This document shows positions 7,060 through 62,501 of a DNA stretch of 64,000 nucleotides, one piece after another. The position numbers and the translations under genes are program-made. Within the stretch, counting starts at the first letter, position 1. Every line of letters starts with the position of its first letter. Location of the stretch: the NCBI GenBank assembly GCA_965267575.1, contig OZ254086.1, forward strand, positions 832,001 to 896,000, given 5' to 3'. The DNA comes from Calditrichales bacterium. Its GTDB lineage: Bacteria; Calditrichota; Calditrichia; Calditrichales; J004. The notes beneath the pieces are model-generated. The model was not told the origin of the DNA, ran no database searches, and saw only the letters and a program-made list of their open reading frames with translations.

Positions 7060-7062
7060 AAC

Positions 7063-7099
7063 AAAAAAAGCCCGTTATCATTTATGCGGCCGGGCTTTT
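7063..7099. terminator. Bidirectional terminator
   Basis: AAAAGCCCG...CGGGCTTTT between convergent genes. Confidence 0.65.
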
Positions 7100-7118
7100 A
7101 ATTTTTTGGCGGATATTT

Positions 7119-8861: not shown

Positions 8862-8927
8862 GAACGCCTCCGTTCTGCGCTAAATAAGCCGGACCCGACA
8901 GAGACGGGCCCGGCGGGAAATGGGGCT

Positions 8928-9878: not shown

Positions 9879-9917
9879 GATATTACTCCTCGTTTTGAGT
9901 TTAAAAAACCCGAAAGA

Positions 9918-10391
9918 CTAGTCCCGGTCCGTCACTTTTCTGACTACCAGGACATTGCACGTGGCGCGGCGTACCACTTTTTCGGTGGTGCTTCCGTAAA
10001 AGAAGTCCTGTAATCCGCTTAAACCGCGGGTAGCAATGGAGATCAGGTCAACCCCGGATTCTTTTTCCTGCTTTAAAATTTCATCATAAGGTACGCCTTC
10101 GCGGATCTTCACCTGGTATTTAACCCGGCGCTCGCCAATATATTTTTTAGCGAATTCCTGCAGCTCAGATATGGCCTGTTCGCGCATTTTCTTTTTCAAC
10201 TCATCCATCTTGACATCGTCAAGAAAGAAGAGCGGCTTTTTGTATACATCTTCCGTGATCACATGCAGAAATATGAGCTGGGAATTATTCTGCTCGGCAA
10301 GCAATACGGCCTGCTTCACAGCGATCCGCGAGCTTTGTGCGCCCAGTTCGGAAAAGTCGGTCGGGACTAAGATCTTTTCGGGTTTAAACAT
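9918..10391 (-). CDS. Universal stress protein (Usp)
   Basis: KILVPTDFS and ATRGLSGLQDFFYGSTTEKVVRRATCNVLVV. Confidence 0.92.
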   Translation of the reverse strand: MFKPEKILVPTDFSELGAQSSRIAVKQAVLLAEQNNSQLIFLHVITEDVYKKPLFFLDDVKMDELKKKMREQAISELQEFAKKYIGERRVKYQVKIREGVPYDEILKQEKESGVDLISIATRGLSGLQDFFYGSTTEKVVRRATCNVLVVRKVTDRD

Positions 10392-10403
10392 AGTGCGGCC
10401 TCA

Positions 10404-11522: not shown

Positions 11523-11573
11523 ACAGCCCCCTTTTGTGAGAGTTATGAGTGAATGAAGCTTCGTGAAGTATTT

Positions 11574-11590
11574 AGCAAGGGCTGTGCCAG
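11574..11590 (-). promoter_or_regulatory. Sigma54 (-24/-12) promoter
   Basis: Minus strand reads CTGGCACAGCCCTTGCT, matching TGGCAC-N5-TTGC, about 52 nt upstream of the porin start. Confidence 0.85.
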
Positions 11591-11664
11591 CCGGTTTTCC
11601 GGCACTCAGGCCGCAGAAAAGGGGTATTATACAGAAAACAATTATTTTTATAAGGAAAGCAATT

Positions 11665-11700
11665 CGGCCAAAATTCACCAAAAGCGGTCAATTTTCACCA
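11665..11700. promoter_or_regulatory. Candidate enhancer (UAS) pair for the adjacent sigma54 activator
   Basis: CGGCCAAAATTCACCA and CGGTCAATTTTCACCA, 20-bp period, each an imperfect palindrome, 75-110 bp upstream of the -24 box. Confidence 0.55.
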
Positions 11701-16000: not shown

Positions 16001-16203
16001 TCGATGGTTTTTTCGTTCAGGCTGACAGTGGTCTTTTCATTGATCTCATCACCCACGTCGTGGATGGTTGACACCATATAAACGGTAATCAGCAGAACAG
16101 GCACCAGTACAAAAACTATCAACAGAACAAATACGCGCTGGAAAATTCCAAAGCGCGGGCCGGACAAAGGGACGGTTGTTTTTTCTACGGCATCAGCCAT
16201 CAC
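13060..16203 (-). CDS. Sensor histidine kinase (periplasmic Cache-like, HAMP, GAF, PAS-like, HisKA, HATPase)
   Basis: Two TM helices, DEIGTLARVFNSM HAMP, GAF-like VPLRVQEKIIG, VAHEIRNPL, NAVEAM, DTGIG, GTGLGL. Confidence 0.92.
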   Translation of the reverse strand: MMADAVEKTTVPLSGPRFGIFQRVFVLLIVFVLVPVLLITVYMVSTIHDVGDEINEKTTVSLNEKTIDMLELQASETATQIGVFLKNIEADLQTIKEAQPSAGFYLTFLQNQTAPVWERGHHHQTVDLPLYKEIAFIAPSGRELIKVEDGTVARGERLKNVSDPRQTRYGVEEYFARTKSLQPGEIYVSRLVGFFVDKKEQLQGAQNLDDAPGGVYYDGVIRFCAPVYEGNKLAGMVTLALDQRHLMGFTQHLLPLSKEKVLFPSYNSGNYAFLFDDQGWIITHPKLWDIKGVDRQGNWIPAYTETSTQEQIDRGYIPFNLDSTGFVHPNYPIVAQKVRQKHTGTLITTNVGGITKIMAYAPVLYSGGVYAEHGVFGGVTVGAELIGFNTSAAFVSREIESLIAQVKSDYFLFMLLALLTAMMTAWFFSRQLTKPIVSLTEGAGKIARGDLGKEINVNRSDEIGTLARVFNSMAGELKKNRSRLLSTIDELKTSKGKAEEYARELEYQIEIFKSIQSISNILGSTFDVNTVIRLILEKCVKSIGFDRAILYLIDDRQKYLACRETYGFSAENERVARRSRYHLQRFDCIETRVVKEGRIIFVEDFNSYSQQTKLDKKIREYTKSNSFVFVPLRVQEKIIGIMGADKIRSQKDISSADINSLQILANQASRVIENTRLYGEIIDQRNFVENVFKYMLNGLITVSSEGQITSMNKAAMEVLEIKDFRPYQNITELFRDNSQMVERIRQQILHRGFFSGYNLEFSIAGKTKFLNVHASQFKSEQGANPDSVIILEDVTDKKQLDEQVQQLEKLASLGRFAAKVAHEIRNPLTGISLFIDDLVNHLNDKPDILPLLEKAQKEIERLEKLTHEILVFTHPASGGHHAGDINEVIKTIMDFLSIQCKKAHVQIEMDLDENIGESLFNPDRMKQALLNIMLNAVEAMPEGGMLSVSSKLQEKEKGEWIRIDVRDTGIGIKTAELGKIFEPFYSSKKKGTGLGLSTTYNIISDHKGIIRVDSMRKRGTLITVLLPRTRPGKKAELAKRESLYGDL

Positions 16204-16281
16204 GAATTGCCTTGATAGTAAATCGGGATAACCTATTATGAATAAATAAGCGGCCTACTGCAAATTTAAATGCGCGATGTG

Positions 16282-21716: not shown

Positions 21717-24343
21717 TTGTCTTTTTCTGCGTGTTTTTCGATAAGCTTCTTATATCCCTGTTCGCCGCGTATAGGGTCCCAAACCGGGTCAAGTTTTAGC
21801 GGCCAAATTCCCAACGCATCGGTAGGGAGAGAAAGCAGTTTATCAATGGCTTGTAAGGCAGGCTTGTGCTCTCCCACCATCACATAAATCTGGGCCAAAT
21901 CCAGCAAACGGAAAGTCCCTCTCCAGGCTTCCTTTTCAATGGGCAAAAGAGCAACGCCCCTTTTTCCATTGCTTAAGGCTTTTTCTTTTTGCCCAAGGCC
22001 CGCATAGGCAAGTCCCAGGGATGTATACAGGCGTGAGTCGTCCGGGTATTGTCTAATTTTTTCCTGCAGGTTTTCCACAGCGGAAGAAAAACTTCTTCTA
22101 GCCTGTTGCTTGTTGTCCAGATATAGGTATACAAAACCCCGCAGTAAATCACCGGGCTTATAGTTAAATTGAGCGTCAAGGTCTCCGAATCCTTCGAGCT
22201 TTGTCAACGCCTCCGCGAAGTTTCGTTCGTAAAGATCCAGGTTCACCAGCTGTAAATTACTCGGCCCATAGTCTAACCCAATATTGTTTGCATGGGCGTT
22301 TTGCAACAATTCCCGGGCAGTGGATATATCGCCATTATCAAGAATCTTACCCTTTGCTTTTGTGAAAATGGGCGCGCCAGCGTTGGGGGCAAGGGAAATA
22401 GCCTTGTTTAAAAACTCTGTCCCCTTATCATATTCTCTCAGCAGATTATAGGTTTCGCCCACGGAAAAGACGGTTGTGTAATTTCGCGGATCCAGCTTAA
22501 ACGTTTTCACAAAATAGCCAATGGCTTCCCTCATTTTTCCTTGTCTGCGGTATACGAAACCGATGCCATTATTAGCAGCCACATTATCCGGCTGCAATTT
22601 TAACGCCTGGTTGTACTGCTCTAAAGCAGATTCATAATTAAGTTTTCCATGATAATAATAGTGTGCCAGGGCCACATGGGCCATTGGAAGATCGGGGTCA
22701 ATTTCCAATGCTTTTAGAGCATTAGTTTTGGAATTGTCTAAATTTTCCCTGGTGCGTTCGGCATATTCCCAATACAGGTTGGATTGCATAATGGATAGAC
22801 CGGCGTATGCCGCGGCGAAATTATTATCGAGGCCAACCGCCTCAAGAAAAAGCTTTTCGGCAAGTCGGGTATTCTGCACGTTTGTTATATCTTCGCCCAG
22901 CAAGACCGCCCGCAAATAAAGATCATATGCGGCGGGATTGTCGGTTATTTTTTGTTCCAGGGTTTTCTTTTCCGATTTCAGCAGCTTTAAGTTAAGGGCT
23001 TCGGCCACGGTTGAAGCAATTTTTGCCTGCAGCTCAAAGACGTTGGAAAAATCAGCTTCGTATGGTTTAGACCAAATCTGTGTTGCATTATTGATTTCAA
23101 TAAGCTCAGGATTTACACGCACGCGTTTTGAGCCGTCCGCGATTTGTTCCCATTGCACCGTACCTTCAAGTATGTAGTCAACGCCGAGTTCGCCGGCTAT
23201 TTGCTGTAGGTCTTTTTCGCTATTTTTATACTGCATGGCGCTGGATCTGGCGATGACTCCCAGGCCGGAGAGCCCCGATAGCTTGCTGGTAATCTCTCCT
23301 GTTATTCCATCCGCAAAATATTCATCCTCGGTATTGCCCAGGTTTTCGAAGGGTAGTATGGCCAGCATTTTTTTTGTGGTTCGCGCGTTTTCCGCTCCCG
23401 GTTTGAGGATATACCAACCGGCGAATATCAAAACCAACAGGGCAGCCAAAATAGCCGGCCATTTTATGTTAAAGCTTTTTTCTTGCTTCAGGCTGCCGCC
23501 GCTCTTTGCCTCGGAACTATAAACCGGTGTTTTTGAATCCGAACCGCTTTTAAGCTCAGATAAAACTTCGTCCATGGACCGGTAACGGTCGTGCCTCTCT
23601 TTTTGCAGGCACTTCTCAACAATGGCGCATATTTCTCCGGGAATGGCGGGATTTGTATCCTTAAGCGGGGGTGCTTCTTCATTTAGCAGGTTGTAGATCA
23701 ACGCCTGTTCGTATTCGCCTTTAAAAGGCGGCTGGCCTGTCAGCATCTCGTAAAAAACGATGCCGAAACTCCAGATATCGGAGCGCTGGTCTGCCTCTTC
23801 ACCACGCGCCTGCTCCGGGCTCATATAAGCGGCCGTTCCAAGAGTTGTCCCCACCTGCGTAAGCTGCGCAGAGCCGCGAAATTTAGCCAGGCCGAAATCC
23901 ATAATGCGTACATGGCCATCGTCCGTGCTCATGATATTGGCAGATTTAATATCGCGGTGCACGATGCCCTTTTTGTGTGCCGCCTGCAGGCCCTTGGCAA
24001 TCTGTATCGCTATATCAACGGCCTCTTCCACGGGCAAAGGTTTGTTGTTTATATGATCTTTCAAATGCTTGCCGAAGATATATTCCATGACCAGAAAAAG
24101 TTCGTTATCTGCTTCTTCAATGGCATGGATGGTGGCAATGTTGGGGTGGTTCAGCGCGGCGGCCGCTTTGGCTTCAATTTCAAAGCGTTTGCGCTCATCG
24201 GAATTGGCAGCAATATGGCGCGGTAAAAACTTTATCGCGACCTGCCGTTCCAGCTTCGTGTCTTCGGCCAGGTAGACCACGCCCATACCGCCCTCGCCAA
24301 GCTTCTCGATGATTTTATAATGAAGGATTTTTTGACCTGTCAT
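21713..24343 (-). CDS. Hanks-type Ser/Thr protein kinase with TM helix, TolB-N-like domain and TPRs
   Basis: Intact kinase motifs; LAILPFENLG..DEYFADGIT; ALEIDPDL TPRs; LKLDPVWDPIR tail. Confidence 0.93.
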   Translation of the reverse strand: MTGQKILHYKIIEKLGEGGMGVVYLAEDTKLERQVAIKFLPRHIAANSDERKRFEIEAKAAAALNHPNIATIHAIEEADNELFLVMEYIFGKHLKDHINNKPLPVEEAVDIAIQIAKGLQAAHKKGIVHRDIKSANIMSTDDGHVRIMDFGLAKFRGSAQLTQVGTTLGTAAYMSPEQARGEEADQRSDIWSFGIVFYEMLTGQPPFKGEYEQALIYNLLNEEAPPLKDTNPAIPGEICAIVEKCLQKERHDRYRSMDEVLSELKSGSDSKTPVYSSEAKSGGSLKQEKSFNIKWPAILAALLVLIFAGWYILKPGAENARTTKKMLAILPFENLGNTEDEYFADGITGEITSKLSGLSGLGVIARSSAMQYKNSEKDLQQIAGELGVDYILEGTVQWEQIADGSKRVRVNPELIEINNATQIWSKPYEADFSNVFELQAKIASTVAEALNLKLLKSEKKTLEQKITDNPAAYDLYLRAVLLGEDITNVQNTRLAEKLFLEAVGLDNNFAAAYAGLSIMQSNLYWEYAERTRENLDNSKTNALKALEIDPDLPMAHVALAHYYYHGKLNYESALEQYNQALKLQPDNVAANNGIGFVYRRQGKMREAIGYFVKTFKLDPRNYTTVFSVGETYNLLREYDKGTEFLNKAISLAPNAGAPIFTKAKGKILDNGDISTARELLQNAHANNIGLDYGPSNLQLVNLDLYERNFAEALTKLEGFGDLDAQFNYKPGDLLRGFVYLYLDNKQQARRSFSSAVENLQEKIRQYPDDSRLYTSLGLAYAGLGQKEKALSNGKRGVALLPIEKEAWRGTFRLLDLAQIYVMVGEHKPALQAIDKLLSLPTDALGIWPLKLDPVWDPIRGEQGYKKLIEKHAEKDK

Positions 24344-41466: not shown

Positions 41467-44460
41467 TTACGCATTCGTCCTGATAAACTTCAATATCTCG
41501 CGCAGAAAAGGGGAAGATCGATTGTCGCGGTTAAAACGGGTGCGCACGGCGCTAAACAATACTTCATCCTTGGCGCGTGTCAATCCCACGTAAAGCAGCC
41601 TCTTTTGTTCCTCCAGCTTTTTGCTCACAGGACGGTCGTCGTCATCGTCCTCTTCTTTGTAGGCCCAGAAGCTGGGCATATTTTCATCTTCCATGCCCAG
41701 GATGATCACTTTTTGAAATTCCAGCCCCTTGGCCGAGTGGAAGGTCAGCAGTGAAACGGCGTCAACGCTGTTTAAGGCATCCTGCGGATTAATCAGCGCC
41801 AGCGAGGAGAGAAATTCGGCGATGGCTTTGTCCACCGGCACTTCGGCAAACTGGGCGGCAATATCCATTACGCGCTGGCGGAATTCATCGGCGCTGTCGT
41901 GCAGAACAAGTTCGGGGTCGAGCTGGTGGGCTTTTCGCGTTAACGCTTCAATCAGTTTCTCCTTTTCAGCGGCGTAGGCGCTGGTGTGCACGTTCAGCGC
42001 TTTGGAGAACGGCGAGATAAGCTTGCGCGCGCCGGCAAGGAACATCACTTTGTCCTCAAAAGCATCGGTTTTATTGAGCAGGAAATTGGCCAGGGCCACA
42101 AACTCCAATCCCTGCAGCACGGCTGTTTTGCGCAGCTGGCTGTCCTGCGCGCGGCGCATCTTCTGAATAATATCATGCAGAACGATCACATCGTCCAGGG
42201 CGCGGTGCCGCGTGCCGGGGTCCAGCTTAAAGCGTGCCGCCAGTGCGTCGATGCTGTGGCTTTCCCCGGGGTAAATGCGCCGCGCCATCATCAGCGAATC
42301 GAAACGATTGTTGAGCAGTTTTTGGTCGCTTAATTCGCGAGCCACGCGGTCTAGGATCTTGAAATCGAAAGCATAACCGTTGTGCGCAACCAGCATATCA
42401 TTGCCGATAAATTTCAGGAAGCCGGGCCACACTTTCTTGATGACAGGCGCCTCAGCCACATCATCAGTGGAGATATGATGCACGCGTTCGGCGCCCTCCT
42501 CTATGGGCATTTGCGGGTTGATGAGCTGCGTAAAGCTGTCCGTAATCTCACCATCGCGCACCTTAACGGCGGCCAGCTCAACAATGCCGCAGGTTGCCGT
42601 ATCCGCTCCGGTCGTTTCCAGGTCGAGCACCACGTAATCGCGCAGCAGGGCATTGCCGCGATAGCTGCTGTTCTGCAGCCAGCGGAATAAGGCGCTCATT
42701 TCCGATTGTCTTTGATCTTCCGTCTGTTCAAGCAGATTAAGCAGGGTGCAGCCGGCGGGAGGCTTTTCCGGAAACTCCTCCAAGGCAAGCAGCAATGTTC
42801 CGGGCTCTAACTCCCTTTTTGCTGTGGTGACAAAATCTGTTTTGTCGGGATACTGCGTTTCCAGCATGGCCGCACCGATGCGGGCGATCTCTTCGCGTGA
42901 GTGAAAGATAACAAGATAATTAAAACCGGCGACGTTGCGCGTTGAAACGGGAAAGCTCTTAAAACGCGGAGCGCGCGATTCGTAATAGGTGCGATCCATT
43001 TCGGCCAGCCCGCTCAATATTTCGGCGACAAGCTGGTCAAAGCGGTAAAACGAGCGCAGGTTGATCAGGTTGGCCAGGTGCCCGATGAAGGTATCGGTTT
43101 TGTGCCGCTCATCGCTGCTCAACTCGGGCCGGGCGCTGTAGCCGTATAACGCCTGGCGGTAAGTCAGCCCGTTGCGCTTTTGAAGATTTTGAATTTGCTT
43201 GTGGCTGTTGTAATCAAGCTCAAGCTGTACCAGCTCCTCCAGGTGCAGATTATCCAGCGGGTTGCGGATAACCTGCAGGTATGCCAGCACGCGCTTCATG
43301 CGCGGATCGTCGGTCAGGTTAAAGCGCGCCGCCTGCTGAAAAGGAATGTGCTCATGGATAAAGCGATTCACTATTTTTTCGGCGAAACGGTGACGGGGAT
43401 ACAAAACGGCGATCTCACCATAGGGTACTCCCTGCTTCTCCCAGTCGCGGATCTTTTCCACGATAAAGCTGATTTCTTCGTCCTCGTAATCAAAAAAGAA
43501 TGACTGAATCGAGTCAGCCAGCTCGTTGTCGGCCTGCAGCACCTTGTCCGGCTCAATGCGCTCAAGCCCGCTCACCACCTGCTGCGCCGTCGAGACAATA
43601 TTTTTCCCGGAACGGTAATTCGTATCCAGGAAAATGGCTTCCTCTATCTTAAAATCTTCCATGTACTGGCGGATGTTTTCCGGGTTGGCGCCACGCCAGG
43701 CGTATATCGACTGGTCATCATCGGCCACGACAAATATGTGACGGTGCTGCTCGGCCAGCATGCGGATTATGTCATACTGCACACGGTCCGTATCCTGGAA
43801 TTCATCCACCAATATCGCCTGGTAAATATGATCATAATGATCGCGGATCTCGGGATTGTCGCGCAGCAGGTCACGGGTAAGCAGAAGGATCTGGTTAAAA
43901 TCAACCAGCTTATGCTTCTTCAAATGTTCGCTGTAGCTATCATAGATTATCTGCGAAAACGGCTTTAGCGGTTTTTCCTTCAATTGGAAATGTTCAAAAG
44001 CGGTCTTTATGCCGCGTAGCTTTTTGTCCACCTCGCTGGATGATCTTTGCTCGACCAATACACGAAGGAGGCGCTCACGGTAATCCTCATCAGCCACGCT
44101 GAAGTGCGGGCTAAGCCCGGCCTGGCGGTAGTGGCTGCGCAGAACCTGCAGGCAGAAACCATGGATGGTGCCGGTAAAAACGCGTTCCGCCTTTTTGCCA
44201 AGAGCCTCACGCAATCTTTCGCGCATCTCGCGCGCTGCCTTGTTGCTGAAAGTTAAAGCCAGTATCTGTTCGGGTGAGATACCATAGCGGTCTATGCAGT
44301 AGATGATGCGGGCGATGAGGGTGCGTGTCTTGCCGGTTCCGGGTCCGGCGAGCACAAGCTCCGGCCGGCGCGGGGCTGTTACCGCCTTTTTCTGTTTATC
44401 ATTAAGGGATTGCAGTATCGGCCTGGATAACATCGGCTCTTCCGCTTGATTAAAGGACAA
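41467..44460 (-). CDS. UvrD/PcrA-family helicase with an inserted DnaQ-like DEDDh 3'-5' exonuclease
   Basis: AGPGTGKT, DEFQD, DDDQSIYAWRGA, NYRS ... VLDLETTG, AHNGYAFD, HRALDD ... TFHSAKGLEF, RLLYVGLTRA; start may be 44433. Confidence 0.92.
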   Translation of the reverse strand: MSFNQAEEPMLSRPILQSLNDKQKKAVTAPRRPELVLAGPGTGKTRTLIARIIYCIDRYGISPEQILALTFSNKAAREMRERLREALGKKAERVFTGTIHGFCLQVLRSHYRQAGLSPHFSVADEDYRERLLRVLVEQRSSSEVDKKLRGIKTAFEHFQLKEKPLKPFSQIIYDSYSEHLKKHKLVDFNQILLLTRDLLRDNPEIRDHYDHIYQAILVDEFQDTDRVQYDIIRMLAEQHRHIFVVADDDQSIYAWRGANPENIRQYMEDFKIEEAIFLDTNYRSGKNIVSTAQQVVSGLERIEPDKVLQADNELADSIQSFFFDYEDEEISFIVEKIRDWEKQGVPYGEIAVLYPRHRFAEKIVNRFIHEHIPFQQAARFNLTDDPRMKRVLAYLQVIRNPLDNLHLEELVQLELDYNSHKQIQNLQKRNGLTYRQALYGYSARPELSSDERHKTDTFIGHLANLINLRSFYRFDQLVAEILSGLAEMDRTYYESRAPRFKSFPVSTRNVAGFNYLVIFHSREEIARIGAAMLETQYPDKTDFVTTAKRELEPGTLLLALEEFPEKPPAGCTLLNLLEQTEDQRQSEMSALFRWLQNSSYRGNALLRDYVVLDLETTGADTATCGIVELAAVKVRDGEITDSFTQLINPQMPIEEGAERVHHISTDDVAEAPVIKKVWPGFLKFIGNDMLVAHNGYAFDFKILDRVARELSDQKLLNNRFDSLMMARRIYPGESHSIDALAARFKLDPGTRHRALDDVIVLHDIIQKMRRAQDSQLRKTAVLQGLEFVALANFLLNKTDAFEDKVMFLAGARKLISPFSKALNVHTSAYAAEKEKLIEALTRKAHQLDPELVLHDSADEFRQRVMDIAAQFAEVPVDKAIAEFLSSLALINPQDALNSVDAVSLLTFHSAKGLEFQKVIILGMEDENMPSFWAYKEEDDDDDRPVSKKLEEQKRLLYVGLTRAKDEVLFSAVRTRFNRDNRSSPFLREILKFIRTNA

Positions 44461-53505: not shown

Positions 53506-53536
53506 AAAAAAAGGCGCTCAACTGAGCGCCTTTTTT
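53506..53536. terminator. Bidirectional terminator overlapping the tpx stop codon
   Basis: A7-GGCGCTCA-AC-TGAGCGCC-T6. Confidence 0.75.
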
Positions 53537-54045
53537 ATTTCTGTATCTCCCAATGCTGCTAAAGCCTTATCATAATCCGGCTCCTGTGCGATCTGCGGAA
53601 CCTGCTCCGTGTAAATCACATCACCTTCCTCATCCAGAACAACAACGGCCCGTGCGAACAGGCCGGCCATGGAGCCATCCACCATTCTGACACCGTAGTC
53701 CTCGCCAAAGGTATGGCGCCGCAATTCGCTAACATTTACAACGCCTTCAATCCCTTCGGCAGCGCAAAAGCGCTTATGGGCAAAGGGTAAGTCCATGCTC
53801 ACATTTACAACAACAACGTTTTCCATCCCCGCCGCCTTTTCGTGGAACTTGCGTACGGACATGGCGCAAATGCCGGTATCGAGACTAGGAAAAATATTTA
53901 ACAAAACCTTTTTACCGGCAAAGTCACTCTTACGAACATCCTTGAGTTCCGTGGTTGTAAGCAAAAAGTCCGGCGCCGATGATCCGACCACGGGAAGATT
54001 ACCCACGGTATTGACTTCATTGCCCTTGTGGATGATTTTGGCCAC
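53518..54045 (-). CDS. tpx: Thiol peroxidase (atypical 2-Cys peroxiredoxin)
   Basis: NIFPSLDTGICA, SMDLPFAHKRFC, EPDYD; GTG start with GGAGG RBS. Confidence 0.95.
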   Translation of the reverse strand: MAKIIHKGNEVNTVGNLPVVGSSAPDFLLTTTELKDVRKSDFAGKKVLLNIFPSLDTGICAMSVRKFHEKAAGMENVVVVNVSMDLPFAHKRFCAAEGIEGVVNVSELRRHTFGEDYGVRMVDGSMAGLFARAVVVLDEEGDVIYTEQVPQIAQEPDYDKALAALGDTEIKKALS

Positions 54046-54077: not shown

Positions 54078-54836
54078 TTAACTTAAAAGATCAATCCTGA
54101 TCCTTTCTATTTTTAAGCGTAGTTCGCTTTGCAAACGTTCGAAACTTTCCTGTCCATATGTGTAAACAATAACATCCACCGGCGTCTCATTTCCGGCGGG
54201 CTCGCCCTTGTTTATCTGCGGCTGCCTGTGCGTGACATGCCATGGCGAATTCAAAATCATGCCGGCCAGGCTTTCCAGAAAGTCATGACTCACCTTTGCC
54301 GAGGGCACCTGCAATGTAAAACTCTGGCAGGTAACCTGGCTGCCCTGCTTTTTGCTGTAGTGGATCTGGCCGGTCAATTTGCTGTAGGGCAGCTTGAGCA
54401 ACGTACCGTCATCCTCTTCCAGTTCTATAGACAGATAGCCTAACTTGCGGATACGCCCTTTGTATTCCCCGACGATAATTTGCTGGCCCGGTTCGTAAAT
54501 ATCCTGTGCGCGCAGGATGATGCCGGCGATATAGTCACGCGCGGCATACCAGCCCAGCCAGCCCATGGCAATAAACGCCAGGGCAATAAAAAAAACGCTG
54601 AAATAAAAGGGTTCGTTAAAAATCTGGCGGAAGGCCCATACCAGGAACGCCAGCCATATTAACAGCTCGATGACGGGAAACAGCCGGGCAAGCCAGGCTG
54701 CGGAAGCGCGGTTGCGTATCACGGAAATATGCAGCAGGTGGCGCGAGAAACGCACAACGACAAATACGGCAATCGCCGCAAGGAATACTTTAATAATGCC
54801 CCACTGAGGCCAATCCATCATCAGGAATTGTTCCAT
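54078..54836 (-). CDS. MscS-family small mechanosensitive channel-like protein
   Basis: 3 TM helices, ARDYIAGIIL, then beta-domain YEPGQQI..GRIRKLGYLSIEL..DGTLLKLP. Confidence 0.78.
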   Translation of the reverse strand: MEQFLMMDWPQWGIIKVFLAAIAVFVVVRFSRHLLHISVIRNRASAAWLARLFPVIELLIWLAFLVWAFRQIFNEPFYFSVFFIALAFIAMGWLGWYAARDYIAGIILRAQDIYEPGQQIIVGEYKGRIRKLGYLSIELEEDDGTLLKLPYSKLTGQIHYSKKQGSQVTCQSFTLQVPSAKVSHDFLESLAGMILNSPWHVTHRQPQINKGEPAGNETPVDVIVYTYGQESFERLQSELRLKIERIRIDLLS

Positions 54837-57800
54837 AACAGCCCCATTTCGCGGAATTCTTCGATGAACAGATGTTCGAGGTATGGATTGATCTGCAAAG
54901 CGCCGCCCTCGTTTTTAATGACAAAGCCGCTGCGCATCATAACCTCCACCTGACGATTGACCTCATCGCGTTCGATGCTGAACAAGCGGGCCAGCCGTTC
55001 GCGCGTAAGCTGGCGGTGCAGGATAAACTGAATCAGCCAGACATACCATTGCGTATCGAGGCTTTCGATGACGGACATGTCCGGCTTGGAAAGCGGCCGC
55101 AAACGAATACGTTCGGCCGAGAAATGATCGATCATAACCAGCCATGTTTGCAGGGCCACGCCGATGTTGCCGGACGTATAGCTAAAAATTTTGTTAAACA
55201 GCCGTGCCAGTTTCAACTCCGATATATCTTCCTCGTTTTCGCGGTTTACCTCAAAACGCAGGCCCGTGGAGCGGTGCCGCTGCATTACCGCGGTTTCGAT
55301 CTCGCGTGCGTTAAACGGCTCGCAGCGAATGATGCCAAGGAATGTATCCTCCAGGCTAAGAACTTCATTCAGCAACCGGAAAGCGTAGCTATTACAATTG
55401 ATCAGGAAAAAGCATTTATGGCCGTAACGATCGACCAGGCCACGCACCATATCAATGACCTTGTAGCCGTTTTCGTGGCGCTCCCACCACATCTCAAGAT
55501 CGTTTATGATCATCACGCTGTTGTCGGGCAAAGCTTCCATCGCTTCGTCGATCGTCTGGCCGCCGCCGGCAAGATCTATCACCTTACGTGTAAATACATC
55601 CGTATCGATGCTGCCGCCGGGTGGCGGGTTAAAGCGGAATATGTGGCTGCGTTCAAACGTGCGGCTGGCAATCATACGGCACAGAGCGGTTTTGCCCGAT
55701 CGCGGATCACCATGCACCAAAAGTGCGCCGCGGAACCCGTTGCGGTAGCGGACAAGCACGCGCTCGGCGTAGCGAAAGGCCTCGTTCTGCGCAACCAGGA
55801 ACTGGCGCGAGATGGAGTGTTCACCGAGAAAAAGCTGGCGGTAATAGCGCGGCAATCCCTGCGTGACCGGACTGTGCGGTGAAATACTTTGTGTCAGACT
55901 GATCAGGGCATCGATGTTGCCTTTCTGCTTTTCCCCGGCACGGCTCAGGCGGCGCGCTATCAGTACGCCGATACTGCGGCTGTATTGCAAGTTAACCACC
56001 ATATCGCGCATCCGCCGCTGGAAACGATCGCGAAACGCCTCCACGCCGCTTAATACCTTACGCTGCTCATGGCTGAAAATGTACTGACGCAAATTGCTGG
56101 TGGCGTTGGTCAGCAGGTAGGGATTTATCTTGTCAAAGAAATGCCCCAGTCTTTCCTGGATTATGCGCCGGGTCTGGCTCAGGGCGGTCTTTACATTTTC
56201 GCGCTCATCCTCCAACCGCTGCAGGCCGTCGGTAGCCACTTCGCTGATGGTCTTTTGCTCGTTGCTAAAATCGTATTCGTCTGCCGCGCGCTCGCTGCCG
56301 CTTACAAGCATCAACTGGCTGATGCCGTTCAGGGCGGTCACGGTATCGCTTACGCGCGTCTGCAGTTCTTTGCCATAGGTCTGCAGGTCGGGCATAAATT
56401 CGGTCTCGGCCAGGTAGCCGATCAGCCGGCGCAGGTACACGGATACCACCTCCGCCTGGTGGAACGGATGATCTTCCAGCTCCTGGAAAGATTGCTCGCT
56501 CATCACCTGGATGATCTCCGGCAGTTCCGTAATTTGTTTCTGAACCTCAGATTCCAGCTCGGATACATCGCCGGGCAGGGTTATCTCCAGCTCTTTTTCA
56601 AATATGTCGGCCGGGGGATTCTGGCCTTCACCGGCAGCTTTCTGCAATACCGTATTGATCTTGTCTATATGTGCTTTAAGCGGACCGTTCAGACTATTTT
56701 CGTTGCGCTTTTGCCAGCCATGCAGCAAGTTGCTCAGGCGGTTCTGGAACAGGTGCAGCGTCAATTCCATTCGCGCAAAATCGATCATCAGCCCCAGGTT
56801 GCGGGTCCAGCTTCCGGCCGCATCCATAAATGTTTCGTCGCTGATATCGCCGCCGCGGAGCTGAAAACGTTTGCGGGCACCGGCCGCGCCGGAAAGGGTG
56901 CTAAGGGCGTCCAGTTTTTCCTGGTATGCCTGGCGATGTGTTTCCAGCAGGGACAGGCTGTTTTCTTTAAAAGCTTTCTTGTTTTTGTCGCGGAATTGGT
57001 GCAGGTCTTCCAGCAGCTTTTCCTTTGTTTCCTGCACAAACTTCTCGTTAAGCTGGCCCTGGTCGGCGCGCGCCATCATGCCCTGCAGCAGCGCCTGTAG
57101 CCTGCTGAAAAATTTCTGCAAATCCGAAATATGCTGATAGCCAATTACGGCGAGTTGCTCAATCTGCGCATAGAAATGAGTCCGCAATACCCCGTTGATA
57201 TGCTCGCGCATCAATTCTGTAAAGGGTACGTCAAAGATGGCCTCTTCACGCTTGGAAAGAAACAATCCTGCCTTTTTACGCAACTTTAAAAAACGCAGGC
57301 GCAGATTGTCGGAATCCTGCATGGCCAGATCATGCCGCGGATAGTTGACCCGCAGATGGATCGGGGAATCCCGGAAAACCTTGCGTAACTGGCCCAGGAA
57401 AACATCACAGCCTTGCTCCACGTTGCGCTCCAGGATGTTAAGGCTGTTTTCCTTAAAATCGTTGATCAGGCGCAGGTTGTTGTAAAGCAGGTCATTCTGG
57501 AACCGCTCAATCAGCGGAGCGCTGTCACGGCTTTTGGCGCCTCCCGAAACCCGCCGGGAAAGCGCGCCCAGGAAGCCGTCGCAAATGCGGTTTAGCTGAT
57601 CACCGAGCTGCTCAAATTCATGCACCACCTCGCTGATGTAGCCGGCATAAAATTCATTGATCGCCTTTTCCAGGTCTTCATTAACTGTTCGCAGCCGCGC
57701 GCTCAAAGCGTCATTAGCCGGATAGCGCAGTTCTGTCCCGGCCGCTTCCGGTGCGGCCCCGGCATCGGACAAACGCCTCTGGGGACTGCTCTCAATACCA

Positions 57801-59956
57801 ATAAAAATCGGGTCAAAATATGATGACGCACTGATCAGCAGGACGCTTTTTAGCGGCTCCAGAAGCTGATGCATGGAACCAAGGAATTTTTTTTGCGCAG
57901 CCGGCGTAAGTTGCGGCATGCCCAATATGGTCAGATCGCTGCCTGCGGATTCCAGTTGCAAAATATCGGAAAAAGGCCGTTGTTCTATGGCGTTGTTGAT
58001 CACTTTAATATCCGCATCCTGGCGCAGGTCCTGCAGCAAGTGTTTCATATTGCGGTGCACTTTGTTGATCAGAGAGCCATCGTCTACGATGATCAGAATA
58101 CGCAGGCGCGCCCGTTGCCAGGCGGCGGAACCGTGCAAAAAGCGCAGCAGGTACATGGCCAGAGACGCGTTGTTACTGCCTCCGCGCCACCACAGGTCAA
58201 TGCTTCTGTATTCGCCAAACTGCCTTTCGGGATCGTAGTTAAGCAGCAGGATGTTGTAATCAAGGTCCTGCAGCGTTTTCAGCATTTCCGCAAAAGGCTC
58301 AGCACGATCGCTCTTCTTGGGCCAGCCCATTAAAACGGTATTAGGCTCCACCCCGGCAAAGCCGTAAAAACGGGCCACGCTTTCTATGCCGCTGTAAACA
58401 TCCCTGCTTTCCAGGCGCCTGTAAAAAACACCCTGGCGCGCCTCGCCGGGATCACGCATAAGCTGCGCCGCCTTTGGAAAACGCACCTGGCCGTCCGGTG
58501 ATTCAATCAGCTCAAAATTGGATATGATTCCGCTGCGCCCGGTGAGCCATTTGCCAAACTGCAGCAGGTAAGGCCGTACATTCTGCATGCCGCCAAAAAG
58601 CAGGATGTTGGGCCGCCAGTTTCTTTTATGGATCACCTCTTCGTTGAGCTTGTGCAAGCCGGAGCGCACTACGGACGCCCAGAAGCTGCCCCAGGTATCA
58701 CCCGTCTCCAATGTCAGCTCTTTACGCTTGATGATCAGGTAGACCAGCGCAAGTACGATAATGGCTCCAAAAAAGGCGACGATATCCAGCTGGAACATCA
58801 CGATGCCACAAACGATGGCGCCCACCAGCCCAACCCACAAAGGCACGCGAAATGACGGACGGAAATCGGTGCTGGCCCAGCTTTCTAACACATAGCTGAG
58901 ATTAATCAAACCGTACGTGCTTATAAAAAACATTGAGACAACACGGGCAATAACGTTCAGGTCGCCAATCAGGATACCGGCTTCCGCGATAATAAAAGTG
59001 AGCAGCAGGGCGTTGCGTGGCTCGTTGGAGGCGCCGTAGCCTTTGGCAAAGAAGCGCGGGGTAACGCCATCTTTGGAAGTTGCCTGCAAAATGCGCGGCG
59101 CGCCGAGAATGCTACCCATGGCGGACGAAATCGTCGCTCCCCAGATACCGGCAATCACAAACTGCGGCACCATAGCTATTTCTACAAAAATGTTGGGGTT
59201 ATCCAGCGTATTGCGGTCTATGTAAAAGGCCGTGTAAATGGCCAGGCCCACATAAACGATAAAGCCCACGGAGATGGCAGCTATGGTTCCTAAAGGAAGT
59301 GCAGTCTTGGGGTCTTTGAGGTCGCCGGACATCTGCACGCCGGCGGTAAATCCGGTAACAGCCGGAAAAAACACGCCAAAAAGAACAAATATATCGACGC
59401 TGTTTTCGGCGGGCATAAGCGAGTATGTGCCGCCGGTAGTCGGGTTGCCGCCAAAGAAAATGGCCAGGATAGAAAGGACAACAGCCGCCAGTATAAAATA
59501 CTGCGTCTTAATGGCCAGTGACGTGCTGATAAAAATGATGATCGTGATAACGACAAGCGTTATTGTGCCGTAAAAGCGGATTGTATTGATTTCCAGCGGC
59601 AAGCCAAGTACGCCAAGCAGGCTTTCACAAAAACCGATGATGTAGAGGCTGATGCTGAAAGAAAGGCCCACAAAAAGCGCCAGACCCAGCGTGCCGCCCA
59701 CGGACAAACCCATGCTGCGCGAGATGATATAATAGTTGCCCCCTGCCTGCACTTTTTTATCTGTGGCAATGGACGCTACACTCAAACCGGTTGTTATAGA
59801 GACAATATGCGCCACCAGAATAATCGCCAGCGTGGCAATCAGGCCGCCCTGCCCCACAATCCAGGGCAGACGCAGATACATAATAACGCCAAGGATAGTG
59901 AGCACCGAAGGCGTAAAAACGCCGCCAAACGTTCCGAATTTTTTAGATCTGGCCAA
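54821..59956 (-). CDS. SLC12/cation-chloride cotransporter-family permease fused to a helical region, a P-loop ATPase and a winged-helix-like C-terminus (1711 aa)
   Basis: GVFTPSVLTILGVIMYLR, GGNYYIISRSMG, FFPAVTG, SGDLKDP, APRILQA, NWRPNILL, PNTVLMGW, IDLWW; Walker A GDPRSGKT at 55688-55711; TTG start. Confidence 0.88.
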   Translation of the reverse strand: MARSKKFGTFGGVFTPSVLTILGVIMYLRLPWIVGQGGLIATLAIILVAHIVSITTGLSVASIATDKKVQAGGNYYIISRSMGLSVGGTLGLALFVGLSFSISLYIIGFCESLLGVLGLPLEINTIRFYGTITLVVITIIIFISTSLAIKTQYFILAAVVLSILAIFFGGNPTTGGTYSLMPAENSVDIFVLFGVFFPAVTGFTAGVQMSGDLKDPKTALPLGTIAAISVGFIVYVGLAIYTAFYIDRNTLDNPNIFVEIAMVPQFVIAGIWGATISSAMGSILGAPRILQATSKDGVTPRFFAKGYGASNEPRNALLLTFIIAEAGILIGDLNVIARVVSMFFISTYGLINLSYVLESWASTDFRPSFRVPLWVGLVGAIVCGIVMFQLDIVAFFGAIIVLALVYLIIKRKELTLETGDTWGSFWASVVRSGLHKLNEEVIHKRNWRPNILLFGGMQNVRPYLLQFGKWLTGRSGIISNFELIESPDGQVRFPKAAQLMRDPGEARQGVFYRRLESRDVYSGIESVARFYGFAGVEPNTVLMGWPKKSDRAEPFAEMLKTLQDLDYNILLLNYDPERQFGEYRSIDLWWRGGSNNASLAMYLLRFLHGSAAWQRARLRILIIVDDGSLINKVHRNMKHLLQDLRQDADIKVINNAIEQRPFSDILQLESAGSDLTILGMPQLTPAAQKKFLGSMHQLLEPLKSVLLISASSYFDPIFIGIESSPQRRLSDAGAAPEAAGTELRYPANDALSARLRTVNEDLEKAINEFYAGYISEVVHEFEQLGDQLNRICDGFLGALSRRVSGGAKSRDSAPLIERFQNDLLYNNLRLINDFKENSLNILERNVEQGCDVFLGQLRKVFRDSPIHLRVNYPRHDLAMQDSDNLRLRFLKLRKKAGLFLSKREEAIFDVPFTELMREHINGVLRTHFYAQIEQLAVIGYQHISDLQKFFSRLQALLQGMMARADQGQLNEKFVQETKEKLLEDLHQFRDKNKKAFKENSLSLLETHRQAYQEKLDALSTLSGAAGARKRFQLRGGDISDETFMDAAGSWTRNLGLMIDFARMELTLHLFQNRLSNLLHGWQKRNENSLNGPLKAHIDKINTVLQKAAGEGQNPPADIFEKELEITLPGDVSELESEVQKQITELPEIIQVMSEQSFQELEDHPFHQAEVVSVYLRRLIGYLAETEFMPDLQTYGKELQTRVSDTVTALNGISQLMLVSGSERAADEYDFSNEQKTISEVATDGLQRLEDERENVKTALSQTRRIIQERLGHFFDKINPYLLTNATSNLRQYIFSHEQRKVLSGVEAFRDRFQRRMRDMVVNLQYSRSIGVLIARRLSRAGEKQKGNIDALISLTQSISPHSPVTQGLPRYYRQLFLGEHSISRQFLVAQNEAFRYAERVLVRYRNGFRGALLVHGDPRSGKTALCRMIASRTFERSHIFRFNPPPGGSIDTDVFTRKVIDLAGGGQTIDEAMEALPDNSVMIINDLEMWWERHENGYKVIDMVRGLVDRYGHKCFFLINCNSYAFRLLNEVLSLEDTFLGIIRCEPFNAREIETAVMQRHRSTGLRFEVNRENEEDISELKLARLFNKIFSYTSGNIGVALQTWLVMIDHFSAERIRLRPLSKPDMSVIESLDTQWYVWLIQFILHRQLTRERLARLFSIERDEVNRQVEVMMRSGFVIKNEGGALQINPYLEHLFIEEFREMGLLWNNS

Positions 59957-60007: not shown

Positions 60008-61429
60008 TTAACTTTCAACAGCATTGTCCGGAATATCCAGACCAAAATAGCTGTGAATAAACGCTTTTCTTCCCCGGTCCAGCTTGGCGTATTGCATCAT
60101 TTTATAAAGCTTGTTCTGCTCACGTTTCAACTTTTTATCCAGGTATGCCTGATCCGTAAGCTTATCGGGCAATTCGCCGGTGACTTTCAGATTTTTACCT
60201 TCAATACTGCCCTCAATCAGGTTGTAGCGGTCAAAAATAGAAAGCACCGTTTCCGCGCGAAAATCCCGTCTGTTCTTGAACGTTAACTGCTCCTTGAAAT
60301 AGTCCATTCCCTCGGCATTAATGCGTTCGGTATCAGATTGTAAAAGATTGTAAGCACGGTAATAGAAATCCGCGGAAGGATTATTCCAACGTATAAATTC
60401 TAATTGTATGTTCAAATCCTGCTCATCGTATAAAAGCTGGCACAGCGAGGGTTTGCCGTCCCGCCCCGCCCGTCCGATCTCCTGGTAATAAGATTCCAGT
60501 GAGCCGGGTACCTGCGCGTGTAGCACAAAGCGAATGTCCTCCTTGTCAATACCCATGCCGAATGCATTCGTCGCCAGGATCAACGGACTCTCACCGCCCA
60601 TAAACGCGTCCTGTATGCGGCGCCGGCTGCGGTTGTCCAGATCGCCATGATAGACGCGGTGCGGGACCTTGCGGCTGTTCAGCAATTCACTCATCCGCTC
60701 AAGATCTTTAATAAGGGCAAAATAGACGATACCGCTGCCGGGATGCTCGGCGATCACCTTGAGGATAGCCTTCAGTTTTTCATCCTCGCCCCAAACGTTT
60801 TTGCGATCCAGTTTCAGGTTGGGCCGCTCAATGCCCTCGTGGAACAGGTGCATGTTGCCGCTTTCCAGCCCCAGCTGGCGCATAATATCCTGCTGCACTT
60901 CCGGCGTGGCCGTTGCCGTAAGCGCCACCGTCAACGGATTGCCCATGATCTGCCGGAATTCACGCAAACGCGTATAATCGGGCCGGAAGTCGTGCCCCCA
61001 CTCGCTGATACAGTGGGCCTCGTCAACGGCCAGCAGGTCTATCTTCCTGCCACGAAGAATTTCAATAAATTCAGCTTTGCGGAATCGCTCCGGGGTAACA
61101 TAAAGAAGCTTGTGACGACCTTTGCTAAGCGCGTTGTATCGCTGTTCCCGCTCTTTTTTGTCCAAAGATGAATTGATATAAATAGCGTCGATATTCTTGC
61201 GGCGCAAAGCATCCACCTGGTCTTTCATCAGCGCGATGAGCGGAGAGATAACCACAGTCAGGTCATTCAGCATAAGTGCCGGCACCTGGTAGAGCAGGGA
61301 CTTACCGGAGCCCGTCGGCATAATAACAAGCGAATGCTTGCCGGCCAGAATGTGGTCTATGACCTCTTTTTGAATGCCGCGAAAATCATTATAATTGAAG
61401 TGTTTGCGCAATATATCGTGAGCTATCAT
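60008..61429 (-). CDS. RecQ-family ATP-dependent DNA helicase, short form
   Basis: MPTGSGKS, VDEAHCISEWGHDFRPDY, ALTATA, ATNAFGMGIDK, YYQEIGRAGRDG. Confidence 0.93.
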   Translation of the reverse strand: MIAHDILRKHFNYNDFRGIQKEVIDHILAGKHSLVIMPTGSGKSLLYQVPALMLNDLTVVISPLIALMKDQVDALRRKNIDAIYINSSLDKKEREQRYNALSKGRHKLLYVTPERFRKAEFIEILRGRKIDLLAVDEAHCISEWGHDFRPDYTRLREFRQIMGNPLTVALTATATPEVQQDIMRQLGLESGNMHLFHEGIERPNLKLDRKNVWGEDEKLKAILKVIAEHPGSGIVYFALIKDLERMSELLNSRKVPHRVYHGDLDNRSRRRIQDAFMGGESPLILATNAFGMGIDKEDIRFVLHAQVPGSLESYYQEIGRAGRDGKPSLCQLLYDEQDLNIQLEFIRWNNPSADFYYRAYNLLQSDTERINAEGMDYFKEQLTFKNRRDFRAETVLSIFDRYNLIEGSIEGKNLKVTGELPDKLTDQAYLDKKLKREQNKLYKMMQYAKLDRGRKAFIHSYFGLDIPDNAVES

Positions 61430-61604: not shown

Positions 61605-62501
61605 ATGAAGATCTCTAAAATATTGGTTCCGGTAGATTTTAGCCCGTTTGCAGGCTATGCCACCGACTATGCGATCTACTTCGCTGAGAAGTACGACGCT
61701 GAGATAACCCTTTTCCATGCCATCGTGCTGTACGAAACGGGTGTGGACGAAGAAAGCCACGTTCGGCAAATGGAAGAGATAATCCGGCGCAAGGAAAAGA
61801 CTTCGCACGCCATGCTGGACAAGCATGAAGGCAAGTATGCGAAGGCGGCCCTGAAATTACGCTCCGAAACGGCACGAGGTGTCTCAGCTTCCGATACGAT
61901 TCTGGAGCATCTCGCTGAAAATGATTACGATCTTATCGTAATGGGCACACACGGCAGAACAGGATTAAAAAACCTGATATATGGAAGTGTTGCCGAGAAA
62001 ATTGTTCGCCTGTCCGCTGTGCCCGTGATGACCGTACATAACGGTCCGGACAGACAAGTTGACATCAAGAAAATCCTGGTCCCGATTGATTTTTCGGAAA
62101 ATTCCCGCAAGGGAGCGGAAAGGGCATTGGACCTGGCAAAAGAGTTTGGCGCGAAAGTGGAATTCCTGCATGTGATTGAACAGCAATTGCATCCCTCATT
62201 CCACGTCGTCGGTATAGAATCTATTTTTGCCATCAATCCGGACCTGAAAAAAATATCGTCGGAGAAGTTGCGCGAATTTGTGCCAAGCGACGTGCAGGCC
62301 GATTACACCGTCATGGAAGGAAGCGCGCCGCAAACGATTGTGGAGTATGCCAAAGAGAACAAATTTGATTTGATTGTAATGTCCACGCGCGGCTTTACCG
62401 GCATCGATCATTTGCTTATAGGTTCCACAACGGAGCGCGTGGTGCGCCTGGCGGAATGCCCCGTATTAACGGTCGGCCGGCGCAAAATTGAAAAAGTTTA
62501 A
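61605..62501 (+). CDS. Tandem-domain universal stress protein
   Basis: Two KILVP(V/I)DFS domains, MGTHGRTG..GSVAEKIVR and GSTTERVVR; AGGAGG RBS. Confidence 0.93.
   Translation: MKISKILVPVDFSPFAGYATDYAIYFAEKYDAEITLFHAIVLYETGVDEESHVRQMEEIIRRKEKTSHAMLDKHEGKYAKAALKLRSETARGVSASDTILEHLAENDYDLIVMGTHGRTGLKNLIYGSVAEKIVRLSAVPVMTVHNGPDRQVDIKKILVPIDFSENSRKGAERALDLAKEFGAKVEFLHVIEQQLHPSFHVVGIESIFAINPDLKKISSEKLREFVPSDVQADYTVMEGSAPQTIVEYAKENKFDLIVMSTRGFTGIDHLLIGSTTERVVRLAECPVLTVGRRKIEKV

Follow-up and report, generated by a model that had tools for sequence, protein, structure and literature searches.

A cation-chloride cotransporter carrying a predicted AAA+ module on a long helical arm, encoded beside an MscS-type channel gene in bacteria of at least five phyla

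We analyzed a 64,000-nucleotide stretch of the Calditrichales bacterium contig OZ254086.1 (assembly GCA_965267575.1, positions 832,001 to 896,000), referred to here as the window and numbered from its first letter. On its minus strand the window encodes a 1711-residue fusion protein in which a cation-chloride cotransporter (CCC) continues into a long helical arm and a P-loop module of AAA+ type; directly downstream lies a gene for an MscS-family channel. The fusion recurs in bacteria of at least five phyla with its ion-ligand residues and P-loop conserved, and the two genes are linked and diverge together. On balance, we favor reading the pair as a conserved ion-homeostasis cassette, in which an NKCC-type importer under AAA+ control is accompanied by an MscS-type release valve, the two possibly docked to each other.

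The fusion gene (54821..59956, minus strand) is a single unbroken open reading frame (ORF) with a TTG start at 59956 and a TGA stop at 54821-54823. The N-terminal consensus of the family, MAxxKKFGTFGG, agrees with the choice of this TTG. A preliminary description, drawn from the letters of the window, had proposed one continuous ORF of this length, with a CCC transmembrane part and an SLC12 cytoplasmic domain followed by about 650 aa of helical-looking sequence, a P-loop ATPase, and a winged-helix-like tail. The ORF is as described, and all of the motifs quoted are present where they had been placed, with GVFTPSVLTILGVIMYLR at aa 12, APRILQA at aa 286, NWRPNILL at aa 446, PNTVLMGW at aa 538, IDLWW at aa 586, GDPRSGKT at aa 1416 (aa 1416-1423, nt 55688-55711), and IINDLE at aa 1483.

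The architecture is not confined to the window. A search with aa 720-1711 returned 17 proteins, 15 of them 1687-1817 aa long and containing AA_permease, 10 also with SLC12, at 23-96% identity. An exhaustive search of representative sequences yielded 1841 clusters at E<=1e-3, 999 at E<=1e-10, and 432 at E<=1e-30; among the matches listed, proteins of ~1700 aa place the extension at ~720-1710. The genome survey that the preliminary description had proposed was made by scanning 185,579 species genomes (one per species) for the C-terminal module, which gave 260 pattern matches, 254 of them confirmed relatives. Locus counts refer to 80 of these 254 loci plus the window (81 loci), comprising 58 intact fusions, 11 broken by a frame shift or stop, 11 cut at the 5' contig end, and 1 stand-alone form. 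By record title, the 80 loci belong to Bacteroidota (43), Ignavibacteriota (11), Calditrichota (9), Myxococcota (8), "Pseudomonadota" (3), and Latescibacterota (1), with 5 lacking a phylum, three of which are labeled delta-proteobacteria. The order Cytophagales contributes 17 of the 80, nearly all as records of metagenome-assembled genomes (MAGs). Four of the six proteobacteria-labeled loci were in the cassette tree, and those four group with Myxococcota. This tree groups largely by phylum, and the window fusion is closest to MAGs of Calditrichota.

These data bear on whether the long ORF is an assembly chimera or two genes read as one because a stop codon was lost, an outcome that the preliminary description had named as fatal to its proposal. 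The gene is indeed split into at least two ORFs in 11 of the 81 loci, and in each of these the CCC piece immediately precedes the rest of the gene on one strand. Against such an artefact, 8 of the 11 splits come from one MAG series (isolates MFD...), and the two that were inspected, one with an in-frame stop and one with a frame shift, break inside the SLC12 domain (~aa 657) and not at a domain boundary. Further, the 58 independent intact fusions span at least five phyla with extension identity down to 20-25%, and the GC content of the fusion gene is even along its length (0.51-0.57). Recurrent intact fusions across loci exclude an artefact, to which we assign a practically negligible probability.

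The first 715 residues form the cotransporter, with both of the parts that had been proposed. A core of 12 transmembrane (TM) segments with the APC/LeuT fold occupies aa 1-451 (58604..59956, minus strand); its best PDB match is human NKCC1 (E 3.7e-69), and Pfam AA_permease (PF00324) covers aa 13-451 (E 7e-47, 160.6 bits versus a cut-off of 24.6). The SLC12-type cytoplasmic C-terminal domain follows at aa 452-715 (57812..58603, minus strand), where Pfam SLC12 (PF03522) matches aa 584-661 (E 2.6e-7, 30.5 bits versus a cut-off of 27). KCC chains align up to aa ~654-669, and aa 446-654 are covered by the C-terminal domain of Caenorhabditis elegans KCC (6vw9_A). Among solved structures, human NKCC1 scores best (E 1.5e-78), followed by KCC2 and KCC4 (~1e-77) and NCC (~1e-67). 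At 394.6 bits the fusion misses the NCBIfam cut-off of 953.4 bits for TIGR00930, the K-Cl cotransporter subfamily, and by this profile it is a relative of that subfamily outside its membership.

A cryo-EM preprint on human NKCC1 names as Na+ ligands the carbonyls of L297, W300, and A610 with the hydroxyls of S613 and S614, and as K+ ligands the carbonyls of N298, I299, P496, and T499 with the hydroxyls of Y383 and T499; at the position of Y383, NCC has a His (10.1101/2021.11.11.468215). The fusion resembles NKCC1 in having identical Na+ and K+ ligand residues: in gap-free alignment blocks, Y383, P496, T499, A610, S613, and S614 correspond to Y105, P198, T201, A274, S277, and S278, and L297, N298, I299, and W300 align with L19, T20, I21, and L22. 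Among the 58 fusions, L19, L22, Y105, P198, A274, S277, and S278 are kept in all 58, and T20, I21, and T201 in 57. The same positions are kept in 80 of 80 short CCCs. A fragment covering TM8 matches NKCC1 (E 3e-14) better than the KCCs (7e-10) or NCC (8e-9), and close short homologues are named "Na-K-Cl cotransporter" in some sources. Because the NKCC1 ligand residues are kept in 57-58 of 58 fusions, the alignments support a working K+- and probably Na+-coupled Cl- cotransporter, whose coupling of cations to Cl- is predicted to be electroneutral.

The remainder of the protein, aa 716-1711, reaches no curated cut-off in Pfam or NCBIfam and gives sub-threshold signals for AAA_22, AAA_16, nSTAND3, and TrmB/MarR. 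An AlphaFold2 (AF2) model of this extension, built from an alignment of 57 sequences of intact loci, has a mean predicted local distance difference test score (pLDDT) of 84.4 and shows, in order, a ~30-residue flexible linker, a long-helix domain, a ~56-residue linker, an alpha/beta P-loop domain, a helical lid, and a winged helix. The first linker (aa 716-744; 57725..57811, minus strand) has low confidence, with pLDDT 33-66 for extension residues 1-30. The long-helix domain (aa 745-1290, ~545 aa; 56087..57724, minus strand) is confidently modeled with seven helices of 47-71 residues plus shorter ones and two small beta-hairpin inserts, in keeping with the helical-looking stretch first noticed; modeled alone, it reaches pLDDT 89.4 and a predicted TM-score (pTM) of 0.84. 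Its two halves match each other in hhalign (probability 95.4%, E 2e-8, 104 columns) and are thus homologous, so that the domain is a tandem duplication of a ~270-aa unit. A Foldseek search of the PDB returned 0 matches at E<=0.001 (best TM-score 0.13-0.15), and the ESM Atlas held no usable match. As modeled, the duplicated helical arm is one domain without a solved analogue.

A second low-confidence linker (aa 1291-1346; 55919..56086, minus strand; pLDDT 36-50) connects the arm to the C-terminal module. It is basic, with a family median net charge of +7 (range +1 to +13), and contains a conserved Y-x-R-S-x-G motif, of which Y1325 and S1328 are invariant in 15 sequences. This linker is a possible docking or membrane-contact motif.

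The C-terminal module consists of an LPxYYxQLF lead-in with an AAA+ alpha/beta base and lid (aa 1347-1620; 55097..55918, minus strand), assigned from Foldseek and motif counts, and a winged-helix domain with a nearly invariant H1647 (aa 1621-1711; 54824..55096, minus strand), assigned from its fold match and weak TrmB/MarR matches. The Walker A motif is GDPRSGKT, and the Walker B motif is IINDLE (nt 55493-55510, minus strand). Over the base and lid, pLDDT is mostly 84-96, with one 10-residue block at 70. In a Foldseek search of the PDB, this end of the protein matches RuvB (8efv_C, E 2.1e-8, TM-score on target 0.50), ORC/Cdc6 (7jgr_G, 1w5t_A, 2qby_A), the archaeal AAA+ protein 2fna_A, and RFC, with E from 2e-8 to 2e-6 and TM-scores on target of 0.43-0.51 across these folds; the match to RuvB and ORC/Cdc6 includes the winged helix. 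Apaf-1 and the plant NLR ZAR1 rank lower (E ~3e-6). At the level of sequence, the module stays below the gathering scores of the Pfam AAA clan (AAA_22, 20 versus 27 bits; AAA_16, AAA, and nSTAND3, E 0.05-0.15), and its matches to PDB sequences are at the level of the P-loop and winged helix-turn-helix (HTH), with E >= 2.8e-4. In the ESM Atlas it matches only "hypothetical protein" clusters, a minority of whose members carry AAA_22 or AAA_16 labels.

Motif counts were made over 220-222 aligned family modules, among which loci and database proteins are partly redundant. Within Walker A, G1421 is present in 220 of 220 members, and position 1422 is Lys in 190, Arg in 24, and Asn, Thr, Leu, or Val in 6, giving a canonical GK[TS] in 86%. 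In the Walker B region, D1486 is kept in 205 of 220, E1488 in 197, W1490 in 215, W1491 in 218, and R1493 in 197; 151 of 220 share N1520, a sensor-1-like Asn that closes strand beta-4. Conservation is near complete at R1560 (220/220), H1561 (214/220), H1647 (215/220), Y1372 (221/221), and F1376 (220/221), and the family has invariant motifs of its own in LPxYYxQLF, D-L-E-x-W-W-E-R, and R-H-x-S-x-G. The P-loop motifs are therefore largely kept across 220 members, where their loss would have told against the preliminary description. The P-loop ATPase of that description can now be specified as an AAA+ base-lid-winged-helix module of the RuvB/ORC/Cdc6 structural type. A STAND identity, which it had also raised, is not demonstrated; H1647 in the winged helix and the fold matches to Apaf-1 and ZAR1 point that way, but the nSTAND3 match is weak (E 0.05), and a repeat sensor domain is absent.

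Since about 14% of members replace the Walker A lysine while several non-catalytic residues are essentially invariant, the counts suggest a nucleotide-binding switch or an assembly or scaffold module, as in ORC/Cdc6- or STAND-type proteins, rather than an obligate motor. The same pattern could be taken further, with the extension serving as a device for oligomerization, localization, or spacing, a pseudo-ATPase or static nucleotide binder that clusters CCC dimers or anchors them to another structure in the cell, while the MscS-like protein is merely co-expressed to serve a shared physiological need and neither touches nor directly regulates the transporter. In favor of this, Y1372, F1376, W1491, and R1560 are all better kept than the Walker A lysine, and the helical domain is large, rigid, and confidently modeled. 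Yet the retention of canonical GK[TS], D1486, and E1488 in most members is hard to explain without nucleotide chemistry. We regard such a mainly structural, static role as possible and on the whole unlikely, a view to which the channel gene, described below, also contributes.

The fold of the module raises another alternative, namely a membrane-tethered regulator in which the transporter senses ions or their flux (a "trigger transporter") and transcription is controlled through DNA binding by the AAA+ and winged-helix domains, like ORC/Cdc6 or large HTH ATP-binding regulators. Its nearest folds, ORC/Cdc6 and RuvB, are DNA-handling AAA+ proteins, the winged helix has weak TrmB, MarR, and Sta1 matches, and the linker ahead of the module is basic. 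However, the winged helix itself is near neutral (median net charge +1 in the family, -3 in the window), and its recognition-helix position, which is not basic, varies more than any other element (mean top-residue frequency 0.35). The near-neutral charge and the variable recognition helix speak against sequence-specific DNA binding, and the only conserved nearby gene that could serve as a target is the MscS-like gene. We consider a transcriptional role very unlikely.

The partner gene (54078..54836, minus strand) encodes an MscS-family protein with three TM segments, a beta-domain, and an alpha-beta domain. It is 252 aa long if translated from the ATG at 54836 and 247 aa from the ATG at 54821, the start in the database gene call for an identical protein (P0288). 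The 16-nt overlap with the fusion gene that had been noted earlier holds for the first of these, the longest ORF; with the second, the junction reads TGATG, and the overlap with the fusion's TGA is 1 nt. Either start thus overlaps the fusion gene. The assignment as a 3-TM MscS-like protein is borne out by three hydrophobic segments, by a PF00924 match (E 2e-6, 28.3 bits versus a cut-off of 20.2) shared by 46 of 49 family members, and by a family profile collinear with E. coli MscS residues 29-243, from TM1-TM3 through the beta-domain and the alpha-beta domain (E 5.5e-15). The partner is a predicted MscS-type channel and would form a heptameric tension-gated pore. In the TM3/TM3a pore-lining region, this subfamily is rich in bulky residues (Leu, Ile, Val, and Trp) at places occupied by Gly and Ala in E. 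coli MscS, and its pore may be packed differently from the canonical one.

Using a profile built from 53 detected neighbors, we found an MscS-like gene immediately downstream on the same strand in 69 of the 81 loci; since 3 loci end at a contig edge, this amounts to 69 of 78 assessable loci, and the neighbor whose absence elsewhere would have counted against the preliminary description is a conserved one. The genes overlap by 4 nt in 29 loci and by 1 nt in 6, and the MscS-like gene is presumably translationally coupled to the fusion gene. Distances between pairs of loci, taken once from the extension and once from the MscS-like protein, are strongly correlated (Mantel r 0.92, 37 loci, 0 of 999 permutations as high), and the pair has therefore been inherited as a unit. 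For the static role considered above, in which the channel is merely co-expressed, the 4-nt overlaps and the co-divergence are awkward, as they suggest more than loose co-expression. Clustering of neighbors over the 81 loci revealed no third conserved neighbor, the best cluster being present in 13 of 81 with mixed orientations.

The preliminary description had envisaged cotransporter, ATPase, and channel as one complex and had proposed a structure prediction of the ATPase region with the MscS oligomer. The prediction was run with one MscS protomer, combining extension residues 430-996 (the last helical hairpin, linker, AAA+ domain, and winged helix; 57 alignment rows) with the MscS-like protein (49 rows). 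The ipSAE score is 0.55 (runs of 0.56, 0.55, and 0.55), compared with 0.00 for the best of three controls; the runs share at least 81% of contacts, and the partner has pLDDT of at least 69. The pass mark is met by 58 of 80 solved complexes and by 2 of 110 mismatched pairs, and those passing at a score <=0.60 are only 7 of the 80 solved complexes and both mismatched pairs, counts that are approximate here because custom alignments were used. The prediction lends weak support to a contact between the ATPase end and MscS, raising its odds modestly, a weakness that also suits the static reading of the extension. On this modeling, the cotransporter, ATPase, and channel may form one physical complex.

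A sensor-like ATPase next to membrane proteins could alternatively belong to a defense or abortive-infection system, in which an AAA+/STAND-like sensor opens ion flux through the transporter and channel and gradients collapse. The patchy occurrence across distant phyla (254 of 185,579 species genomes), the variable flanks, a layout of NTPase and membrane effector superficially like that of some defense systems, and a weak PADLOC mad8 match (E 0.002-0.006, P-loop only) are all compatible with this. In opposition, neither the fusion nor the MscS-like protein has a significant PADLOC match, the latter having no match at all, and the transport-ligand residues are as strictly conserved as in ordinary short CCCs. 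The neighborhood in the window is housekeeping, with no mobile or defense genes adjacent, and the phylum-wise grouping of the cassette tree also disagrees with such a role. We consider a defense function highly improbable.

Returning to the ion-homeostasis cassette, the conserved features can be arranged into a tentative mechanism. The transporter would bring in salt and turgor would rise. The AAA+ module, binding ATP or ADP, would act as a nucleotide-state switch and possibly as an oligomerization hub, and its state could set transporter activity through the helical arm and the SLC12 C-terminal domain. In eukaryotic CCCs, activity is set by N- and C-terminal phosphorylation. The MscS-type channel, made alongside, would be the matching release valve and may dock on the ATPase end of the arm. 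Turgor control as the function of the pair and an ATPase that takes the place of kinase regulation, both put forward in the preliminary description, are conceivable because of the known functions of the component families. In a more mechanical form, the pair might act as a "turgor-stat," a transporter-channel supercomplex in which the AAA+ modules of several fusions form a nucleotide-dependent ring under the vestibule of the MscS-type heptamer, arms of ~8 nm set its depth, and ATP state and tension reciprocally gate salt uptake and release. We consider this specific form speculative and rather unlikely; if true, it would be the first AAA+ ATPase to directly govern a secondary transporter and a mechanosensitive channel.

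Several observations weigh against an AAA+-controlled, channel-coupled importer. The probable Na+ coupling is deduced from the conserved serines. In 30 of 220 members (~14%) another residue stands in place of the Walker A lysine, so ATP hydrolysis is not essential family-wide. Nine of the 78 assessable loci have no adjacent MscS-like gene; two of these have a copy 1.3-2.2 kb farther downstream, and the retrieved flanks of the other seven contain none. The score of the predicted complex falls in a band where, according to the tool, wrong predictions outnumber right ones except when the pairing was already likely, and the prediction covered only the ATPase end and one MscS protomer, without the transmembrane parts or the heptamer. 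Plentiful CCCs of ~727 aa with identical ion-site residues do without the extension. Finally, one Flavobacteriales MAG (L077) encodes a soluble, stand-alone 1120-aa protein with the helical, AAA+, and winged-helix parts (6579-9941, plus strand), which aligns to fusion aa 804-1688 and is preceded by 6.5 kb that contain no CCC; the contig stops 240 nt past the gene, before any MscS-like neighbor could be seen.

The neighbors of this stand-alone gene are miaA and a gene for a PolyA_pol/CCA-type enzyme, unrelated housekeeping genes. Other candidate stand-alone forms were four proteins of ~950-1020 aa. Three of these have no initiator Met, and one of the three is truncated at the C terminus as well, so they look like fragments. 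The fourth, P0101, starts with M; the L077 protein is the only demonstrable stand-alone form.

Short CCCs of ~725-735 aa are numerous (7105 matches among 8000 scored candidates) and share 49-57% identity with the fusion. We compared them with the fusions in a CCC-domain tree made with FastTree, an unrooted tree from a quick method, containing 58 fused rows and 45 short ones (44 drawn at random from 80, plus the short CCC of locus L027). The fused or short label changes 12 times on this tree, and at least 11 changes are forced by well-supported branches. Nine interleaved short rows are singletons, some of them on short contigs or labeled partial and possibly truncated gene calls, and two clades of true short CCCs (16 and 19 rows) are nested among the fusions. 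A single gain of the fusion without later losses is accordingly not claimed. Because the extension is homologous across the whole family, we tentatively favor one fusion event followed by some losses. The L027 locus, from Bacteroidales, is unusual in its own arrangement (region 5945-21043): it carries on one strand a fusion gene, a very divergent short CCC (752 aa, 11001-13259), and an MscS-like gene (13283-13993), and on the opposite strand a second pair of fusion (16544-21043) and MscS-like gene (15844-16563).

Each component of the cassette belongs to a known superfamily, and the fusion is a new architectural variant of CCC transporters. With eukaryotic SLC12 proteins (NKCC1, KCC1-4, and NCC) and the ~727-aa prokaryotic CCCs it shares the 12-TM APC-fold core and SLC12 cytoplasmic domain; unlike the CCCs of the searched literature and all solved structures, it has ~1000 extra C-terminal residues. 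Whereas eukaryotic CCCs are phosphorylated through WNK-SPAK, the fusion is presumably regulated by nucleotide state. To our knowledge, the regulation of CCCs has been described only through the kinase pathways of eukaryotes. The C-terminal module shares the base-lid-winged-helix fold, Walker A, and Walker B with RuvB, ORC/Cdc6, and archaeal SSO1545 (PDB 2fna), and has in N1520 a candidate for the sensor-1 Asn. It differs from all of these in having sequence likeness at the P-loop level only, a covalent tether to a transporter, a winged helix that is not basic, and its own invariant motifs. Similarly, the partner is collinear with E. coli MscS (YggB) and differs from it as a distinct subfamily of ~240-250 aa, with a bulky TM3, encoded in an overlapping pair with a CCC fusion.

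The closest functional parallel concerns KCC1, whose C-terminal domain binds ATP or ADP and resembles TeaD, a USP-type regulator of the TeaABC osmolyte transporter (PMC8280820). Like these, the fusion places a nucleotide-binding cytoplasmic element (in its case predicted) on or with an osmoregulatory secondary transporter; KCC1 and TeaD have a small Rossmann/USP-like pocket, in contrast to a full AAA+ module at the end of a ~545-aa helical arm. In the accessible text of the CCC papers searched, the only prokaryotic CCC mentioned is that of Methanosarcina acetivorans, through a crystal structure of its C-terminal domain, and no transport or regulation data for prokaryotic CCCs were found there. 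Full-text searches of the literature outside subscription journals and supplements brought up no paper on a CCC that is fused with an AAA+ ATPase or linked to MscS, which agrees with the earlier impression that the architecture had not been characterized.

The genes around the cassette in the window are varied. Downstream, a thiol peroxidase (Tpx) gene (53507-54045) follows the MscS-like gene on the same strand after a 32-nt gap and is not a conserved neighbor elsewhere. A strong hairpin that resembles a bidirectional terminator (53507-53536) marks its end, and co-transcription with the MscS-like gene is possible; a scan of promoters and terminators found no more sites than in shuffled sequence. 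The fusion gene is immediately preceded, on its own strand, by a gene for a short RecQ-family helicase (60008-61429, minus strand, 473 aa), in which the helicase core alone matches and the RecQ zinc-binding match is weak; the equivalog profile has 591 positions. About 1.6 kb upstream of the fusion gene, a divergent gene (61605-62501, plus strand) encodes a tandem universal stress protein (USP) of 298 aa; domains of this type regulate TeaABC and are similar to the nucleotide pocket in the C-terminal domain of KCC. A cluster of ~298-aa neighbors that includes the window, and that may correspond to the USP gene, occurs in 5 of the 81 loci. Farther away, three tandem Ser/Thr protein kinase genes (16282-24343, minus strand; 893, 918, and 876 aa), with C-terminal beta-propeller (PD40) or TPR regions, adjoin genes for a sigma-54 activator and a dCache/HAMP/GAF histidine kinase. 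A UvrD-type helicase (41467-44460, minus strand, 997 aa) carries an RNase_T-type 3'-5' exonuclease inserted at aa ~610-760, within the span of the UvrD C-terminal profile.

Bacteria of at least five phyla thus carry a predicted nucleotide-binding apparatus of ~1000 aa on a CCC, paired with an MscS-type channel gene. The family offers a natural series for structure-function work, comprising intact fusions, Walker-A-degenerate members, a stand-alone helical-ATPase protein, and short CCCs. It makes testable both the control of a secondary transporter by an AAA+ module and the coordination of salt uptake with emergency release in one unit.

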